The notes under the pieces: model-generated
The model's database searches: none
The model's input: only the letters and a program-made list of their open reading frames with translations
Told to the model about the DNA's origin: nothing
In this document: positions 941-28,250 of the stretch, one piece after another
Layout of the letters: the number at the start of each line of letters is the position of its first letter
How positions within the stretch are numbered: position 1 is the stretch's first letter
DNA from: Amphibacillus sediminis NBRC 103570
GTDB lineage: Bacteria; Bacillota; Bacilli; Bacillales; Amphibacillaceae
Direction: 5' to 3'
DNA: 32,000 nucleotides
Assembly: GCF_001552275.1 (NCBI RefSeq)
Contig: NZ_BCQW01000001.1
Span: forward strand, 366,800 to 398,799
Made by a program: the position numbers and the translations under genes

Positions 941-1050
941 GCACCTCCTTAAATAACTCAGACTCGCCATTACAGGTGTGAGCGGTCGCTCCCTTATAAC
1001 CTGTTCTGCGCGGTTGTAGCAACAGGTGCTACTTATTTGCATAACATTAA
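941..1050 (-). promoter_or_regulatory. Structured 5' leader of rplU operon (candidate L21 ribosomal-protein leader)
   Basis: About 100 nt between the RNase gene stop and rplU. It has nested helices on the minus strand (CACCUGUU...AACAGGU; GAGCG-ACC-GCUC). An L21 autoregulatory leader is known at this position in Bacilli. Not checked against a covariance model. Confidence 0.5.
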
Positions 1051-5123: not shown

Positions 5124-5796
5124 TGATAACACTCCTCTCAAAAGCATTTAACTGTGGTCTTTTTCTTGCTACTGCCTGTAAACGATCAATCACGATTTTC
5201 CCTGAATCATCAACATAGCCACATTCCAAATAAACGCCATCAGAATTGTAATCAGGAGACCGGCTATATAGTCCTGCAATCCGCAATTGAACAGGATCCA
5301 TGTATGATGCTGCAATAATGGCTTCTTTATTACCTAAATAACCTGCGTGAGCAATCCCTCTTAAATTCCCCATAATAAACACGTTACCTGTTGCTTTAAC
5401 TGTAGCACCTGGATTAACATCACCGATTAACAGTAAGTCTCCCTTCACCTCAACAACTTGTCCAGATCGAACCGTTTTAGTAATCGTCCGAACATCACTT
5501 TCCTCTTTTAGCTCTAATGCCTGCTGTTTTAGAATGACGTTCGACTCTATATTTTGCACGACCATTTTATTCTTCTTTCTAATCAACGCACGTAGCGTCT
5601 CTTCTTGATCATTATGTAAATAGCGATTACCTAGCTGAACAGTGAGTGTAATCATTTGCTCTTCATCAAGATCATCCTGCGAGAGTGTGCGGTCGAGCTC
5701 TTCAAGTAGGTCGTCAAAGGAACACGAATCATCAAGATAGAGTGTTAAGCCTTCACGTGTTCCTTTTATTGTGACATATTGTTTTTTAGTGATCAT
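5116..5796 (-). CDS. minC: Septum site-determining protein MinC
   Basis: C-terminal beta-helix segment GDVNPGATVKATGNVFIMGNLRGIAHAG is typical of MinC. Start ATG 5796 lies behind SD GGAGGTG. Position is between mreD and minD. Confidence 0.9.
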   Translation of the reverse strand: MITKKQYVTIKGTREGLTLYLDDSCSFDDLLEELDRTLSQDDLDEEQMITLTVQLGNRYLHNDQEETLRALIRKKNKMVVQNIESNVILKQQALELKEESDVRTITKTVRSGQVVEVKGDLLLIGDVNPGATVKATGNVFIMGNLRGIAHAGYLGNKEAIIAASYMDPVQLRIAGLYSRSPDYNSDGVYLECGYVDDSGKIVIDRLQAVARKRPQLNAFERSVING

Positions 5797-8334: not shown

Positions 8335-8837
8335 TTCAATCGTCCTCTCTATACTCAAAAAATTCTCTATAATATCTTATAAGATGTTTTAAAAGCTGTT
8401 ATCTTATATCTTACCATAATTAAGAAGCGCCTACGTAAGATTTTTCTCTCAGTAGGTCGCTTTCAATTTGATAACTCACCTTTTTAATTATACGAGAATT
8501 TATCAAAAATAGATAGTCTTATTATGTGAACCTTTTTCATTTAGGAATAGATCATCACAACACTCCCGATAAAATGATCTAAAAGTTCTATTATAGATCT
8601 CTATAATTCTTTCACATTAGCACACAGCAAAGGAACTGATCGAAATCAAGCACCAAGTTCTAGCAGGGTGTAATAATGGTCGGGTGCTTTTTTTGTTAAA
8701 AATGTTAGATTCAGCTCCAGATATTGAAATGTAAAAATCATTTAATGCTGTTCCTAACTTTTTTAAAAAACAGGTGAAAAAACCTGATAAATCTCGTATA
8801 ATATCAGGGAATGTTTTTGAAAACAGGAGGGTTACAT

Positions 8838-9440
8838 ATGAAGTTTAAATTACTAATCATGCTCTTATCTACTTATTTTATATTAAGTGGTTGTGGGTCC
8901 GTTTTTAGAGATATTGCTGGCAGTAAGCCTACAGAGGAACCACCAACAACTGTTGTTGACGATGATACTATAGAGGAAAATGACGTGGATAATCAACATG
9001 TTGTCGAGAGTGATGAATCAGATCAACAAGATGTAGAGGATAAATCAGTAGAGGGAGAATACTTAATCGAACTTAATCAGCCAATAGCCGATAATGAGGA
9101 CTTCTCAGCAACTTTAGTTAGTATTGAGAAAATAATCGATGAATATTGGGATGAAGAAAGAATCGAAGTTACCTTTGATGTTCATAATAAAACAGACGAA
9201 ACTGTTACCTTTCAAGCTCGTGATGTGTCTGTTGATGGTAGAATGGTGAATGAACGAATATTATACATGAGTCAGGATGTAGCGAGTGGCAAATCAGCAT
9301 ATGCGGTCTTGACTATAGAAGACTATAATGGTGGTAAACTACCTGCATTTGAAACTGATTTTGAAATGCGTTTACATGTTTTTTCATTTGAAAATTACGA
9401 CTATGAAAACAGCGCTGATGTTCGGGTCGTATTTGATTGA
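8838..9440 (+). CDS. Putative lipoprotein with acidic linker and C-terminal beta-rich domain of unknown function
   Basis: MKFKLLIMLLSTYFILSGCGS contains a lipobox (LSGC). SD AGGAGG lies 8 nt upstream of ATG 8838. A D/E-rich linker is followed by a domain of about 120 aa. It is the only sizeable plus-strand gene in this part of the window. Confidence 0.75.
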   Translation: MKFKLLIMLLSTYFILSGCGSVFRDIAGSKPTEEPPTTVVDDDTIEENDVDNQHVVESDESDQQDVEDKSVEGEYLIELNQPIADNEDFSATLVSIEKIIDEYWDEERIEVTFDVHNKTDETVTFQARDVSVDGRMVNERILYMSQDVASGKSAYAVLTIEDYNGGKLPAFETDFEMRLHVFSFENYDYENSADVRVVFD

Positions 9441-9841: not shown

Positions 9842-9982
9842 TTAAACATACCCCTTCTCTTTTAAAGAAACAAATTTATGGTCACCTATAATTAAATGGT
9901 CTAACAGCTCTATTCCAATCATTTTTCCACACTCGACTAATCTCTTTGTTACATATATATCTTCTTGTGATGGTGATGGATC
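9842..9982 (-). CDS. radC: RadC-family JAB/MPN-domain protein, exon 2 (46 codons plus stop)
   Basis: The minus-strand translation is [46 protein letters not shown]. This is the canonical RadC C-terminus and completes the JAMM motif begun in exon 1. There is no start codon or SD of its own. Confidence 0.9.
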
Positions 9983-10019
9983 GTAGGGTCGATCTGTCCA
10001 TAGCGACAAACCTCCCTCA

Positions 10020-10053
10020 GAACCGTACGTACACCTTTCAATGTATACGGCTC
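10020..10053 (-). ncRNA. Group II intron catalytic domain V
   Basis: The minus-strand sequence is GAGCCGUAUACAUUGAAAGGUGUACGUACGGUUC. It has the AGC triad, a 2-nt bulge and a GAAA tetraloop, and is near-identical in its helices to my recollection of Ll.LtrB domain V (GAGCCGUAUACUCCGAGAGGGGUACGUACGGUUC). Confidence 0.9.
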
Positions 10054-11174
10054 GCCAGTTGATATGTGTCTACATGAAAACTAAACAGAGCAGGTTGTTT
10101 CGGCAAACGAATCGGCTTATATCCCTGTTCCTTCAGCCATTTGCCAGCCTTCGTTACGGAGCAGCCTTTCTTTAAGGCGATCGTTCTTAGTAAACTAAGT
10201 TGGGCAAAATAAAACAATTGGCCTAAAAAGCTATAGTTATCAGCATACTTAAATAAACAAGCAACTACAAAGCATTCTCTAGCATAGATATTAGCAATCT
10301 GATCAATAGGTAAATGAATAAGCGCTCCTCGGGGATATGGTTTTTTATTACACATACTTCCATACTGATGTAATTGCGCGATGTGTTCGAGGGCTTGCTT
10401 GGTAATTTCAAATCGGATACAGTTATGACGCTGGGAATAACGTATTGAATACCCTGCTAAGCGAATCGGCTTAGAGAAGTGATGGAAGTGAATACTATAA
10501 TCGGAGGCCAATTTTTCTTTCAATCTTTCAACTAATAATAGCGTAGAATTTTTATTGCAGATTAAAGCTAAATAAACTGTTTGGTTGGAGAAGCAATAAA
10601 AACAAGATGAGGAAGTGATCGGTAAAGCCTGAGGATATATAACATGCTGCGATAGTTGGATGGCCAAGCATAAGCCGTTAAAGCGTTCCTTTTGTGACTG
10701 TTGCAGGTGAGAGAAAAAAAGGCTAATTAATTTAATGAACCTTTGATCATCAATTAAGTGGCAAATCCGATTAGTAAAGGTATTTGGTCTAGATTGATAA
10801 CGAAGCTTGATTACCCAATGGACATTTTCCCAATTGGCCTTAATGTGGTTAAGACTTTGTTCTGGGCTTGAGTGATAAGCAGATCTTAAGCAAGGTGAAA
10901 TAAAAAGAAGCTCGATTACATAAATTAAACTTTCCATAACCCATGTACGTTTGATCATTTGAGCAATTGTTCCCCAATTGCTGGATCTCAATGCAAATAA
11001 AAGTTTGCTTAAATCATGATTCCTTGATCGTTGCCAGCTTTTAGTATGATAACTGGTCCGAAGCTCCTGCCAAAGCTCTCTTTGATATAATAAACGATAA
11101 CAATCCTTAATAAATTTCCCCTGTTTTAACCGTTCATGTAAGACTGAAAATTGATTAATCGGCTTAACTGTCAC
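10038..11174 (-). CDS. Group II intron-encoded protein: degenerate RT plus maturase (X) domain, no D/En domain
   Basis: It aligns with LtrA at RT0 ([11 protein letters not shown] vs LYRYLLRPDIY), at RT2a-4 ([11 protein letters not shown]...WVIKL...[14 protein letters not shown]), at the RT7/thumb region (VERLKEKL...RLAGYSIRY vs IKEQLKLF...RFLGYDIRV), and at domain X ([56 protein letters not shown]). YADD is replaced by YLAL. The start is GTG. Confidence 0.85.
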
Positions 11175-11401
11175 CTTCGTGACGCCCCCAATCCTTTTTC
11201 ATCTATCAACCTGCCTCCCTTCCCCCTGCTAAGCAGATTACCCGCAAACGTTGAGTACTATGGAGACTCCGTTACCCTATAGCAATCGCTACTTAGGTAA
11301 TCCCTACCTATCTGTTCAAAAAAGATACGTGATGGTTAGGTACTCCTTTTGACTGTTTCTCCAACTAGGAGATTGGTAGGTAGACCCTATCATAATCTAA
11401 G

Positions 11402-11407
11402 TCTGAC
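11402..11407 (-). other. Candidate EBS1 of the intron
   Basis: Minus-strand GUCAGA pairs with IBS1 UCUGGC, the last 6 nt of exon 1 (5 Watson-Crick pairs plus 1 G-U). Confidence 0.6.
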
Positions 11408-11455
11408 GAGCTTAGCTTATTCTACCTAAATAACACAAATGTTATCATGCATCCC

Positions 11456-11461
11456 CATCCA
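11456..11461 (-). other. Candidate EBS2 of the intron
   Basis: Minus-strand UGGAUG pairs perfectly with IBS2 CAUCCA (exon positions -12..-7). It lies about 50 nt upstream of EBS1 in the RNA, as expected for domain I of IIA/IIB introns. Confidence 0.6.
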
Positions 11462-11639
11462 TAAGTCTAGAGTTCAAGCAGTATAGCCTTTACCATACAT
11501 CACTTGACCAAGCCAATAGCTTTACACCATGCTCTTGTCCTCCATTATGTTTCCATTAGAAGTAAGGTGCTGGTCATAGAATCTGATAAGGAATTCTAGA
11601 TCTAATTGATCACTTTTATGAACAGCTTTGTAGGCGCAC

Positions 11640-12188
11640 GCCAGATGGATGATTGTGAACACAGATAATGGATGCTGCTGATCGTTTGACAGCTTCTCGA
11701 AATACCTCTCGTGGGTGCACTATACTTGAATTAAGGCTACCAATAAAGACAGTTTGACGATGAATAATTTGATTTTTTGTATTTAAGAAGAGGGCAACAA
11801 AATGCTCTTGCTTTAATAATCGCATATCTTCCATAACAAACTCAGCACCATCTTCAGGGCACCTGACTACATAACGTTCATTTGCAATTAGCCTATTCAT
11901 ACGATTTCCTAACTCAATGGTAGCAAGTATGCCCACTGCTTTTACCTGCCCGATTCCCTTAATGGCCATTAACTCTTCTAACGTTGCATCACGTAAAAGC
12001 TCAATCCCTTCAAAATGCATATAGACTCGTTTGGCTAATTCCTGTACACTCTCCTCTCTCGTCCCACTTCCGATGATAATCGCTAAAAGTTCTTGAAAAG
12101 ATAGGTGTGATGCCCCGTGTTCAATGAGTCTTTCCCTTGGTCTGTCTTTTTTCGGGATATCCTTCATTTTTAAATGAAGATTGGGCAT
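11640..12188 (-). CDS. radC: RadC-family JAB/MPN-domain protein, exon 1 (183 codons)
   Basis: MPNLHLKMKDIPKKDRPRERL...HhH-like LLAIIIGSGTREESV...GIGQVKA...CVHNHPSG. The ORF-track product continues VRLQSCS* into the intron. Spliced, the product is 229 aa, the normal RadC length. Confidence 0.92.
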
Positions 12189-16346: not shown

Positions 16347-16670
16347 CTAATTAAATTCTAATTCTCCGTTCTCATTTCGGCTTACCGTACCTTGAGGTGC
16401 ATCCCCTTGGCGAATATCTAAATAACCGCTCTCAATTAGGGTATCAACATCAACCGGAAGACTATTTTCTTCCTGAATTTCATAAAGTCTAGCAGCGTCT
16501 AAAATTAATGCTACCTCTTGCTCGTCCGCATCATTACGTGCTTTGTCAACAATATTACTGATAGCTGGGATCGCAATTGCTACGATAATCCCCAAAATAA
16601 CGATAACCGCAAGTAATTCAACCAGAGTGAATCCTTTTTCACCTTTGATAAGTTTTTTAATGTTTGCCAT
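16347..16670 (-). CDS. pilA: Type IV major pilin (prepilin with class III signal peptide)
   Basis: MANIKKLIKGEKG|FTLVELLAVIVILGIIVAIAIPA has the G/FTLxE cleavage-methylation motif. The product is short (107 aa). Strong SD AAGGAGGA. It has its own flanking regulatory hairpins. Confidence 0.88.
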   Translation of the reverse strand: MANIKKLIKGEKGFTLVELLAVIVILGIIVAIAIPAISNIVDKARNDADEQEVALILDAARLYEIQEENSLPVDVDTLIESGYLDIRQGDAPQGTVSRNENGELEFN

Positions 16671-16748: not shown

Positions 16749-16789
16749 AAAAAAAGCTCACAACATAAATAATCTTTTATGATGTCAGC
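16749..16789 (-). terminator. Intrinsic terminator in the pilC-pilA spacer (pilBTC terminator or pilA leader attenuator)
   Basis: Minus-strand GCUGACAUCAUAAA-AGAUUA-UUUAUGUUGUGAGC (14 stem positions, 2 mismatches) is directly followed by UUUUUUU. It lies about 80 nt upstream of the pilA ATG. Confidence 0.7.
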
Positions 16790-16871
16790 CGGTTGCACTA
16801 CTTGCTCCAAATTACCAAAGTGCCCAAATAAGGTAATTTATCATCGCATCTGAAATTGATTTTATAAAACT

Positions 16872-24939: not shown

Positions 24940-25100
24940 ATAAAGTGAAACTTTCGTTCAGTGGGGTTTCGACGCATAGGATGTGCTCGTGCAGACGTTG
25001 CGACACGACGTCGCGAGCCTTAGTCAGCTTCCTCTTCGCACACTGAACGTTAGTTGAACCAATCGGGCCGTTACTGGCTGTTGGATCTCCTACTTAGACA
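24940..25100 (-). ncRNA. Candidate structured RNA element, unclassified, in the folC 5' region
   Basis: Local G+C jump (36/60 in 24961..25020 versus 20/60 in 25101..25160, by my count). A 9-bp long-range helix (25038..25046 with 24952..24960) encloses a hairpin at 24983..25014 (CUCG-C-GACGU...ACGUC-UGCA-CGAG). A further hairpin lies at 25056..25081. There is no ORF. Strand is assigned only from context. Confidence 0.35.
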
Positions 25101-25199: not shown

Positions 25200-27848
25200 T
25201 TAATTATTTTTCAATTCTTCTAGGCGAGCCATCACCTTTGCCCGCTTATCTAAATAGTCAGCTTCTTTTTGCTTTTCTTCAGCAACAACTTTTTCTGGGG
25301 CTTTCTTGATAAAACCTTCATTGCTTAACTTTTTCTGAACCCGATCCACTTCTTTATTTAACTTTTCTAGCTCAGCTGTTAAGCGTTCAATCTCCTTCTC
25401 AACATCAATTAATCCTGCCAGTGGTAAATAGAGCTCTGCTCCAGTTACAATAGCTGACATTGACTTCTCTGGCACTTCACTATTGAGATGAATCGTTAAT
25501 TCGTTTGTGTTACAGAAGCGCTCAATATAATGACGGTTAGACTCAAGCTGCTCAGCGATATCTGCATGATCTGGCTTTATCACAAGAACAATAGGCTTTG
25601 ACAATGGGGTATCCACTTCTGCTCGAATATTTCTTACTGAACGAATAATTGCAACAAGACGTTGCATCTCTGAAGCAGCTTGTTTATTCGTATAGGCTTC
25701 GTTAACTTTTGGCCATACCGCTTGGGTAATCGACTCACCTTCATGTGGAAGGTGCTGCCAGATTTCCTCTGTTACAAATGGCATAAATGGGTGGAGCATA
25801 CGTAAAATCTGATCCAATACATAGACAAGAATGGATCGTGTTGACTGTTTAGCCGCCTCATCATCGCCATAGAGCGGCAGCTTAGCCATCTCAATATACC
25901 AATCACAGAAATCATCCCAAATAAAGTTATACAAATAACGTCCAGCTTCACCAAAATCATAACGATCGGTATGACGATTAACTTGATTAATGGTCTCATT
26001 TAGGCGTGTTAGAATCCAATGATCGGCAACATTTTTATCCAATGTAAGATCGATATCCTGCAAAGTCATACCTTCAGTATTCATTAAAACAAATCGAGAA
26101 GCATTCCAGATTTTATTGATAAAGTTCCACGTTGATTCTACCTTTTCCCAATGGAAGCGCAAGTCCTGACCTGGTGTAGAGCCAGTTGCCAGGAAATAAC
26201 GTAATGAGTCTGCCCCATATTTATCGATGACATCCATAGGATCAACACCATTGCCTAATGACTTACTCATTTTCCGCCCTTCTGCATCGCGGACTAACCC
26301 GTGAATTAACACGTCATCAAATGGACGCTGGTTGGTAAAGTGCTTAGATTGAAAAATCATTCGAGCTACCCAGAAGAAAATGATGTCATAACCAGTAACC
26401 AGTGTACTAGTAGGGAAATAACGATTAAATTCTTTATCCTCTGTATCTGGCCAGTTTAATGTTGAGAACGGCCATAATGCCGAAGAAAACCAAGTATCCA
26501 AAACATCTGTATCTTGCTCCCAATGATCAAAATCAGCCGGTGCTTCTTTGCCAACATAAATCTCACCAGTATCCTTATGGTACCAAGCTGGGATGCGATG
26601 TCCCCACCATAATTGACGAGAAATACACCAATCTCTAATATTATCCATCCATCGTAGATAGGTGCCTTCAAACCGCTCGGGAACAAAGTTTACTTTTTCC
26701 GCTTGATTTTGTTGAAGCTTTACCGCTTCGTCTGCTAACGGCTGCATTTTTACAAACCACTGAGTCGATAAATAAGGTTCAACAACAGCTCCACTACGTT
26801 CAGAATGACCAACTGAATGAACGTGCTCTTCGATTTTAAATAAAACGCCTTGCTCTTGGAGATCTTGAACAATCTGTTTTCGGCACTCAAAACGATCCAT
26901 TCCCTCGTATTTGTCAGCATTTTCGTTCATTGTACCATCTTCATTCATCACCAATATACGTTCTAAATCATGACGGTTGCCAACTTCAAAGTCATTTGGA
27001 TCATGAGCTGGCGTAATTTTAACGACACCAGAACCAAACTCTCTATCAACATAGTCATCAGCAATAATCTCGATTTCACGACCGACAATAGGTAAAATCA
27101 CTTTCTTGCCAATTAGGTGTTGATAGCGCTCATCTTTTGGATGAACAGCTACAGCTGTATCGCCCAACATCGTTTCTGGACGTGTTGTTGCAATTTCAAT
27201 ATGTCCTGAGCCATCTTTTAATGGGTACTTCATATGGTAGAAGTGACCTGTCACTTCTTTATGAATAACTTCTATATCAGATAAAGCTGTTTGGGTTACA
27301 GGATCCCAATTGATAATATATTCACCACGATAAATTAACCCTTCTTGATAAAGTTGGACAAATACTTCTTTAACAGCTTCTGATAAGCCCTGATCAAGCG
27401 TAAATCGCTCTCGAGAATAGTCTAAGCCCAAACCTAGCTTCTCCCATTGCTTGCGAATAAATGAGGCATATGACTCTTTCCATTCCCAAGCTTTTTCCAG
27501 AAACTTTTCTCTACCGAGATCATAACGACTCGTTCCTTCTTCCCGTAGCTTTGCTTCCACTTTTGCCTGTGTCGCTATTCCTGCATGATCCATCCCTGGA
27601 AGATACAAAACATCATAGCCTTGCATCCGTTTGATTCTTGTAATAATATCTTGTAACGTCCCGTCCCACGCATGACCAATGTGGAGTTTCCCTGTTACAT
27701 TTGGTGGTGGGATCACGACAGTATAAGGCTTTTTATTAGGATCATGCGTTGCTTGAAAAAACTTGCCTTCTAGCCAAAATTGGTAGCGTCCTGTCTCAAT
27801 AGTGCTTGGATCATACTTCGGTGGTAAATTATGACCTTGATCATTCAT
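25200..27848 (-). CDS. valS: Valine--tRNA ligase
   Basis: 882 aa with a HIGH motif ([12 protein letters not shown]), a KMSKS motif ([10 protein letters not shown]) and a C-terminal coiled coil. Confidence 0.97.
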
Positions 27849-27964: not shown

Positions 27965-28250
27965 AAAATAAAAAACCCTTTTCGTCCTATAAAGGACGAA
28001 AAGGGTTGAGCAATCCGTGGTACCACCTTTGTTTATAGCCTATCATTGACTATACACTTCATTTTGATAACGGCTTTAACCGGTTTAACCTAGTAGTCAT
28101 TGTAATATGACGTTCAGTAAAACTACATCCAAGGCTACCTTCCACTGTCAGTGACTTAGAAATCTTCCAGCTAGTGATTTCCTCTCTGTCAAGTGTAAAC
28201 AATGTACTCTTCCTCTTCATCGTATTTTATTCGTTTCATTTCGTTTTGAT
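27965..28250 (-). promoter_or_regulatory. T-box riboswitch leader of valS (candidate GUA valine specifier)
   Basis: Stem I elements are present: a K-turn-like AUGAAGAGGAAGAGUA, the AG bay AGAGAGG and the distal loop GCUGGAAG. The specifier-loop GAAGGUAGCC has GUA at 28136..28138; the register is ambiguous with GGU. The T-box sequence AAAGGUGGUACCACGG is at 28015..28030. The terminator AACCCUUUUCGUCC/GGACGAAAAGGGUU plus a U-tract is at 27965..28007. Confidence 0.88.

Follow-up and report, generated by a model that had tools for sequence, protein, structure and literature searches.

A degenerate group II intron within the JAMM motif of radC in Amphibacillus sediminis, and its relatives at the same site

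A 2015 review (Zimmerly & Semper 2015, PMC4424553) portrays group II introns of bacteria as selfish retroelements that keep out of housekeeping genes and seldom lose their reverse transcriptase (RT). It also describes O.i.I2 of Oceanobacillus iheyensis, the exons of which encode RadC and the open reading frame (ORF) of which has stayed open while its mitochondrial-like (ML) class protein lost YADD and other motifs; according to the review, no other degenerate intron-encoded protein was known from bacteria. A group II intron has also been reported in a radC-family gene of the Bacillus cereus group, at an unstated site (Tourasse & Kolsto 2008, PMC2504315), and another in recA of Geobacillus kaustophilus (Chee & Takami 2005, cited in PMC4424553). 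Here we describe a radC intron in a 32,000-nt stretch of the Amphibacillus sediminis NBRC 103570 genome (contig NZ_BCQW01000001.1, positions 366,800 to 398,799; hereafter the window). Like O.i.I2, it lies in radC and carries a stop-free, ML-derived ORF without YADD, and it belongs to the known O.i.I2-type radC introns rather than to a new kind. The RT-dead intron protein is a more unusual feature of this locus than the host gene.

The A. sediminis radC gene is split between the ligands of its JAMM metal-binding motif. Exon 1 (11640..12188, minus strand; 549 nt, 183 codons) encodes the N-terminal half of the JAB domain, HxH included, together with the UPF0758_N/HhH region, and ends ...CVHNHPSG. 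Exon 2 (9842..9982, minus strand; 46 codons and a stop) begins DPSPSQED... with no start codon and supplies the Ser and Asp of the motif. Read through without splicing, exon 1 becomes a 190-aa ORF (11616..12188, minus strand; ...CVHNHPSGVRLQSCS*), in which CVHNHPSG is followed by VRLQSCS and a stop. Joining 11640 to 9982 in phase 0 (predicted spliced junction, ...CATCCATCTGGC|GATCCATCACCA...) gives a 229-aa RadC in which a regular-expression search finds HxHx7Sx2D and all JAMM residues are present. The joined protein matches Pfam RadC (PF04002) over positions 2-120 of 121 (E = 1.9e-48) and UPF0758_N (PF20582; E = 2.8e-28). It aligns over 100% of its length, at 83% identity, with an uninterrupted 229-aa Paraliobacillus RadC; for the intact proteins listed, from Aquibacillus, Virgibacillus, Oceanobacillus and Halobacillus among others, identity is 72-83%. 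With the Rfam match given below, these agreements lie far outside what chance would produce. The original prediction, made from the letters of the window alone, had placed a phase 0 break inside the JAMM motif, and joining the exons confirmed it to the base. The intron-less radC alleles that it proposed to look for occur in sister genera. The opposite case, in which RadC orthologues naturally end at HNHPSG, is excluded by these intact 229-aa proteins and by an exon 2 that is recognizable at at least 56 loci with the intron (see below). The comparisons also uphold its view that full-length RadC would require splicing.

The exons bear the marks of a maintained gene. Their ratio of nonsynonymous to synonymous substitution rates (dN/dS) was 0.01-0.05 across the compared pairs, with 0.05 for A. 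sediminis and A. jilinensis, the one estimable pair that includes A. sediminis, indicating strong purifying selection. The gene lies in a conserved core chromosomal neighbourhood, in which valS, folC, a type IV pilus cluster and the gene of a SPOR protein precede it and a single plus-strand ORF, mreB, mreC and mreD follow. In public records, the 190-aa fragment is named 'RadC family protein', the intron ORF is a 'hypothetical protein' and exon 2 is not annotated as radC; the same mis-annotation of a split radC recurs in A. marinus and Oceanobacillus.

The 1,657-nt interruption (9983..11639, minus strand) starts with GTGCG (11639..11635) and ends with CCCTAC at 9983, in agreement with the 5' GUGYG and 3' AY termini required of group II introns. 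The Rfam model of domains V and VI (RF00029) matched 10055..9983 over model positions 1-77 with 61.1 bits (gathering score, 40), and the match stops exactly on the predicted 3' splice site. Domain V (10020..10053, minus strand; GAGCCGTATACATTGAAAGGTGTACGTACGGTTC) matches the family consensus, and domain VI (9983..10019, minus strand) contains an unpaired, bulged branch-point A (9989, minus strand), 7 nt from the 3' splice site, that is conserved in 40 homologues. An RNAalifold consensus of 57 aligned homologous 5' halves contained 107 pairs, 88 of them with compensatory changes. The Rfam D1-D4 families gave no significant match to the intron: none reached its gathering threshold, and in E-value mode only weak matches to plastid models appeared. 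The interruption is thus identified as the group II intron that the original prediction had proposed, because of its GTGCG...AC ends, the RF00029 match at the junction, the branch-point A and the covarying fold of 107 pairs, to which the exon-binding loops described below can be added.

We searched 185,579 species-representative genomes for HNHPSG codons with GTGCG immediately downstream; the resulting counts are lower bounds. Among the 120 matches listed, about 23 were uninterrupted RadC genes, HNHPSGVR being read naturally in uninterrupted RadC of Proteobacteria and Bacteroidota, and about 17 were chance matches; both groups were excluded. At least 80 other genomes have an intron at the radC site. 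At least 56 of the loci contain an intron of 552-2,538 nt followed by a recognizable exon 2, and at least 24 more begin with the same intron (GTGCGCCT...) in a fetched stretch that ends inside it. Hosts among the matches listed are almost all Bacillaceae in the broad sense, including Oceanobacillus, Virgibacillus, Gracilibacillus, Halolactibacillus, Robertmurraya, Ureibacillus, Cerasibacillus and the B. cereus group, as well as A. jilinensis, an Amphibacillus metagenome-assembled genome (MAG) and Pelagirhabdus; one is a Calditrichia MAG. The intron of A. marinus (1,591 nt) lies at the identical position in the same synteny, and both site and synteny are common to A. sediminis, A. marinus, A. 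jilinensis and the Amphibacillus MAG. The original prediction had regarded an interruption of this kind as rare, naming the Geobacillus recA intron and some cyanobacterial cases. It was right that a conserved chromosomal gene is interrupted, but for this gene the rarity was overstated, as radC was already a published host (O.i.I2) and at least 80 other genomes share the site.

These introns range in size and decay from mobile copies of about 2,535 nt through copies without an RT active site to relics without an ORF. ORF-less introns were found in intact radC genes at three loci (L061, 552 nt; L009, 706 nt; L047, 1,067 nt). Relative to the full-length copies, a domain I stem-loop of about 50 nt is missing from the introns of Amphibacillus, Halolactibacillus and B. 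coahuilensis, in which neighbouring helices are also shortened (window 11385-11470; alignment columns 212-258 and 331-419), and domain VI is shorter in at least the Amphibacillus and Halolactibacillus introns. Trimming has affected the ribozyme as well as the ORF. Between the Amphibacillus introns, the ribozyme is 71-79% identical and the ORF DNA 47-51%.

Evidence for selection on splicing came from exon recognition. The last six bases of exon 1, intron-binding sequence 1 (IBS1; TCTGGC, 11640..11645, minus strand), pair at all six positions, one of them G-U, with exon-binding sequence 1 (EBS1; GTCAGA, 11402..11407, minus strand) in the terminal loop of a domain I hairpin. An EBS2 candidate, GGATG (11450..11454, minus strand), occupies the alignment position of the TGGGTG loop of the intron family, also a domain I terminal loop, and could form 5 bp with a putative IBS2, CATCC (11647..11651, minus strand), in exon 1; the assignment is based on position and complementarity. 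Across relatives, EBS1 changes in step with the synonymous third bases of the Ser and Gly codons (IBS1/EBS1 of TCAGGT/ACCTGA, TCAGGA/TCCTGA, TCCGGT/ACCGGA, TCTGGT/ACCAGA and TCAGGC/GCCTGA, for example). After leaving out seven introns with misaligned EBS1 columns (L096, L066, L020, L086, L085, L103 and L052), we found pairing at all six positions in 29 of 32 degenerate or ORF-less introns, compared with 4 of 18 full-size copies (Fisher p = 1.6e-6). Fourteen of the 17 distinct IBS1/EBS1 combinations were fully paired (shuffled mean, 4.2). Selection for splicing is the only reading that makes sense of an EBS1 that tracks silent exon changes. Full pairing probably reflects a long co-evolution of resident introns and exons under that selection, and the mobile copies may still carry the EBS1 of their donor.

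Domain IV of the A. sediminis intron encodes a 378-aa degenerate RT/maturase (10038..11174, minus strand; GTG start) in which Pfam detected no RVT_1 domain; the original prediction had not mentioned this degeneration. A word-indexed search of 5.8 billion sequences returned a single relative, the 359-aa ORF of A. marinus (30% identity), and a profile search returned 13 matches; most degenerate ORFs are evidently not annotated as proteins. Relatives were hence taken from the DNA loci, and the 378-aa ORF was aligned with the longest ORFs of 54 other radC introns. It is collinear with 629-aa proteins encoded at the same site, which contain RVT_1, YADD, Intron_maturas2 and an AI2M-like HNH domain and are of the ML class. 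Of the 55 aligned ORFs, 48 matched Intron_maturas2 (PF01348), 22 RVT_1 and 15 HNH, the last being full-length relatives only. In the A. sediminis protein, the region of the motif 3 Asp reads KLRYQ and YADD has become FSNQ, such that the catalytic aspartates are lost, and much of the fingers and palm is deleted. It has no C-terminal DNA-binding/HNH endonuclease (En) domain, ending about 40 residues past the X domain.

What remains of the protein is unevenly conserved. The best-kept parts are an N-terminal RT0-like segment and the thumb/X region, and nearly all near-invariant residues of the 55-ORF alignment fall at aa 258-335, in X/thumb. An AlphaFold2 (AF2) model built from an 11-sequence alignment had a predicted local distance difference test score (pLDDT) of 81.5 and a predicted template-modelling score (pTM) of 0.73. 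Its best structural match was 8h2h_D, a 599-residue group II intron RT chain (E = 5e-9, TMq 0.57) that we take to be LtrA, followed by the group II intron RTs 8t2r, 6ar3 and 6me0. LtrA contacts intron RNA mainly through its N-terminal/RT0 region and thumb, suggesting a maturase-only role for the 378-aa protein. Among degenerate ORFs with unsaturated synonymous divergence (dS), dN/dS was 0.33 (L024/L037), 0.24 (L033/L105), 0.25 (L071/L064) and 0.27 (L020/L086), and the overall range in closer species pairs was 0.23-0.36. All four Amphibacillus introns keep one open frame of 359-392 codons at an amino acid identity of only 31-35%, and the proportions of nonsynonymous and synonymous differences (pN and pS) between the A. 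sediminis ORF and those of other Amphibacillus were 0.46-0.48 and 0.74-0.75, respectively.

Full-length and degenerate copies showed different evolutionary patterns. Full-length intron proteins are 74-95% identical to each other (median, 82%), compared with a median of 70% for the host RadC proteins, and in 93% of pairs they are more alike than the RadCs; degenerate intron proteins have a median identity of 27%. In a neighbour-joining (NJ) tree of the ribozymes, the full-length copies formed a tight, short-branched cluster that spans many genera and includes several just-broken copies, and the degenerate copies, on long branches, grouped according to the genus of their host. Those of the four Amphibacillus formed a clade adjoining Halolactibacillus, with which they share the absence of the domain I stem. 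The simplest reading is a cycle in which a mobile radC-homing intron invades and becomes fixed, RT and En are lost, the intron is passed on vertically for a long time by splicing only and the ORF finally disappears; the A. sediminis intron would stand at the maturase-only stage.

The radC site showed further variation. In the Calditrichia MAG, a full-size copy of 2,538 nt with a 661-aa YADD ORF occupies the same radC site (L102:254-2812); its RadC is only about 40% identical to those of Bacillaceae, and its intron protein about 62%. This copy suggests transfer between phyla, with contamination of the MAG as the alternative source. Bacillus sp. FJAT-22090 has two radC-family paralogues (L049 and L079; ...REAVKRSAASIICAHNHPSG and ...KQLIRRSCASVIVAHNHPSG), both with an intron start at the site. 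The exon 2 sequence is ...LDHSVRCS* in Bacillus sp. 123MFChir2, Niallia tiangongensis and Bacillus sp. 491mf. About 90 nt after the first intron, another group II intron, of a different type, starts at three loci (L076:2027-4911, minus strand; L070:1359-1785; L032), as judged from an Rfam group-II-D1D4-5 match in L076 and L070 and from translation alone in L032; a second RF00029 match, marking the 3' end of this intron, was found only in L076. In Gracilibacillus marinus, radC (L009:5441-5598) contains an extra RF00029 match that ends at 5535 and is followed by in-frame YREAIKRAAASIICLHNHPSG, so that another intron appears to lie 21 codons upstream of the HNHPSG site, beside the ORF-less one of 706 nt. 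Overall, radC looks like a hot spot for group II introns.

We compared the A. sediminis intron with described systems. The O. kimchii-group locus (L123) has a 1,928-nt intron at exactly HNHPSG|D, and its 427-aa protein, encoded between a truncated radC and mreBCD, belongs to cluster P0124 (O. kimchii, Oceanobacillus sp. ISL-73/74 and 'MULTISPECIES Oceanobacillus'). Insertion site and radC-then-mreBCD neighbourhood are shared with A. sediminis, the intron of which is shorter (1,657 nt, 378 aa), encodes a protein only about 20% identical, lacks the domain I stem of about 50 nt and has a shorter domain VI. The correspondence of the A. sediminis intron with O.i.I2 itself is deduced through this close relative; the primary description of O.i.I2 is reportedly that of Simon et al. 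in 2008. The B. cereus-group loci L088 and L104 also have an intron at the same radC site. The full-length radC introns (L012, L059 and L070, for instance) share the site and a homologous ribozyme and protein with A. sediminis but, unlike it, are about 2,535 nt long, with a 629-aa product that has RVT_1, YADD, X and HNH; their short branches and imperfect EBS1-IBS1 pairing suggest recent mobility.

More distant systems share parts of this anatomy. Ll.LtrB of Lactococcus lactis, the model IIA/ML intron, has the same 5' GUGCGCC start, an ORF in domain IV and EBS1/EBS2 pairing, but its protein LtrA is an active RT, maturase and En of a mobile intron on a conjugative element, whereas the A. sediminis intron has lost RT and En and resides in a chromosomal core gene. 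The recA intron of G. kaustophilus also interrupts a conserved chromosomal gene of DNA metabolism in Bacillaceae, in a different gene and likened here by description. MatK of the chloroplast trnK intron offers a functional parallel, being a degenerate RT that keeps domain X and a splicing factor in a vertically inherited, immobile intron of an essential or conserved gene, as outlined in the review (PMC4424553). It is organellar and serves several introns, however, and is linked to the A. sediminis ORF by the shared PF01348 family only, as a functional analogue. In the searchable literature we found no survey of radC introns and neither the breadth of the family nor the graded series of decay, parts of which may already have been catalogued.

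Taken together, these observations suggest the following history. An ML/IIA-type group II intron would have entered chromosomal radC by retrohoming, at the conserved HNHPSG|D coding site, and would since have been inherited vertically in the Amphibacillus/Halolactibacillus lineage. With a protein that lacks RT catalytic residues and a DNA endonuclease domain, and a ribozyme that has shed peripheral helices, the A. sediminis intron would now be immobile. It would be transcribed within the radC pre-mRNA, about 12 bases at the end of the exon would pair with EBS1 and EBS2 of domain I, domain V and the domain VI branch A would perform lariat splicing, and ligation in phase 0 would yield the 229-aa RadC with an intact JAMM motif. 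The 378-aa ORF has most likely been kept as a splicing-only maturase whose N-terminal and thumb/X regions would mediate intron binding, as is probable for MatK in chloroplasts. We consider a spliced, immobile IIA/ML-type intron with a maturase-only protein probable. Its anatomy and homology, the lost catalytic residues, the signatures of selection and the co-variation can be read from the sequences, and from these we infer splicing in vivo, maturase activity and vertical descent.

Several points weigh against this reading. Splicing is deduced from comparative evidence only, and the match of the 378-aa ORF to Intron_maturas2 is sub-threshold (aa 267-337; E = 0.013, 16 bits against 20.8). In comparisons of the A. 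sediminis ORF, dS was saturated in two of three cases and near saturation in the third, so the case for selection on this ORF lies in pN/pS and the open frame. The three ORF-less relatives mean that a cis-encoded protein is not strictly required for persistence at the radC site, and an intact maturase from elsewhere in the genome could possibly act in trans, our analysis having covered 32 kb. Poor splicing may also carry little selective cost, B. subtilis being able to do without radC. The ORF-less introns and the sub-threshold score, together with the very fast evolution of the ORF within one genus, would fit an intron that is spliced while its ORF is a functionless, decaying remnant, splicing being autocatalytic, aided by host factors or carried out by the maturase of another intron; according to the review (PMC4424553), ORF-less introns in bacteria are usually accompanied by intact relatives, the proteins of which may act in trans. 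We regard this as unlikely, as one ORF fills domain IV in all four Amphibacillus introns at about 50% nucleotide divergence, over a length at which neutral AT-rich sequence would be expected to gather stops. Constraint on degenerate ORFs wherever dS is measurable, the focus of conservation on the N-terminal and X/thumb regions and the confident RT-like fold of the model also argue for a retained function.

That radC has instead become a pseudogene, disrupted by a dead intron and leaving A. sediminis with no functional RadC, is very improbable. Model Bacillota can do without the gene, and the ribozyme lacks peripheral helices that the full-length copies have, but both exons are intact and in frame with all JAMM residues and an exon dN/dS of 0.05 against A. 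jilinensis. In the intron, domain V is on consensus, the branch A is present and EBS1-IBS1 is fully paired, and EBS1 tracks silent exon changes across the family. A still-active mobile retroelement that recently arrived by retrohoming is effectively refuted. In its favour, closely related full-length copies with YADD and HNH occupy this site in many genera and one Calditrichia MAG, with proteins more alike than their host RadCs. The A. sediminis protein, however, has none of the RT catalytic aspartates and no En domain, its intron sits on a long branch inside a genus-specific clade, and its nearest protein relative among the sequences searched is only 30% identical.

The window contains several other features. 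In the type IV pilus cluster, which includes PilM and a prepilin peptidase, a cyclic-di-GMP-II riboswitch (16778-16860, minus strand; 76 bits) closely precedes an N-methyl pilin-like ORF of 107 aa (16347..16670). Rfam also identified a T-box leader (27989-28229, minus strand) upstream of valS (25200..27848), a Bacillaceae-1 small RNA (24973-25038, minus strand) between valS and folC, and an L21 leader (950-1025, minus strand), all three ordinary for Bacillaceae. The plus-strand ORF between radC and mreB (8811-9440) encodes a 209-aa acidic lipoprotein-like protein (N-terminal ...LSGCGS) with no Pfam match; in Oceanobacillus L123, mreB follows the intron ORF with no called gene in between.

The interest of these findings stems mainly from the comparative series and less from the single A. 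sediminis locus. The locus should be annotated as a 229-aa RadC made by predicted splicing, together with a maturase-like intron protein, rather than as a 190-aa truncated RadC and a hypothetical protein. With its at least 80 relatives, it traces in graded stages a trajectory opposite to that expected from the selfish-retroelement view, which makes it possible to test in culturable bacteria how splicing-only introns and MatK-like maturases evolve. Whether the family is a bacterial counterpart of organellar intron domestication, with a radC intron repeatedly fixed, RT and En lost many times independently, splicing-only persistence by vertical descent at the genus-to-family level, a maturase under purifying selection and, finally, an ORF-less intron, is a question on which we find the evidence evenly balanced. 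If so, the type of degenerate protein called the sole bacterial example in the 2015 review would be common at radC, and this gene, in which some species carry second introns at other sites, would serve as a natural laboratory for studying how a retroelement turns into a host-dependent intron.

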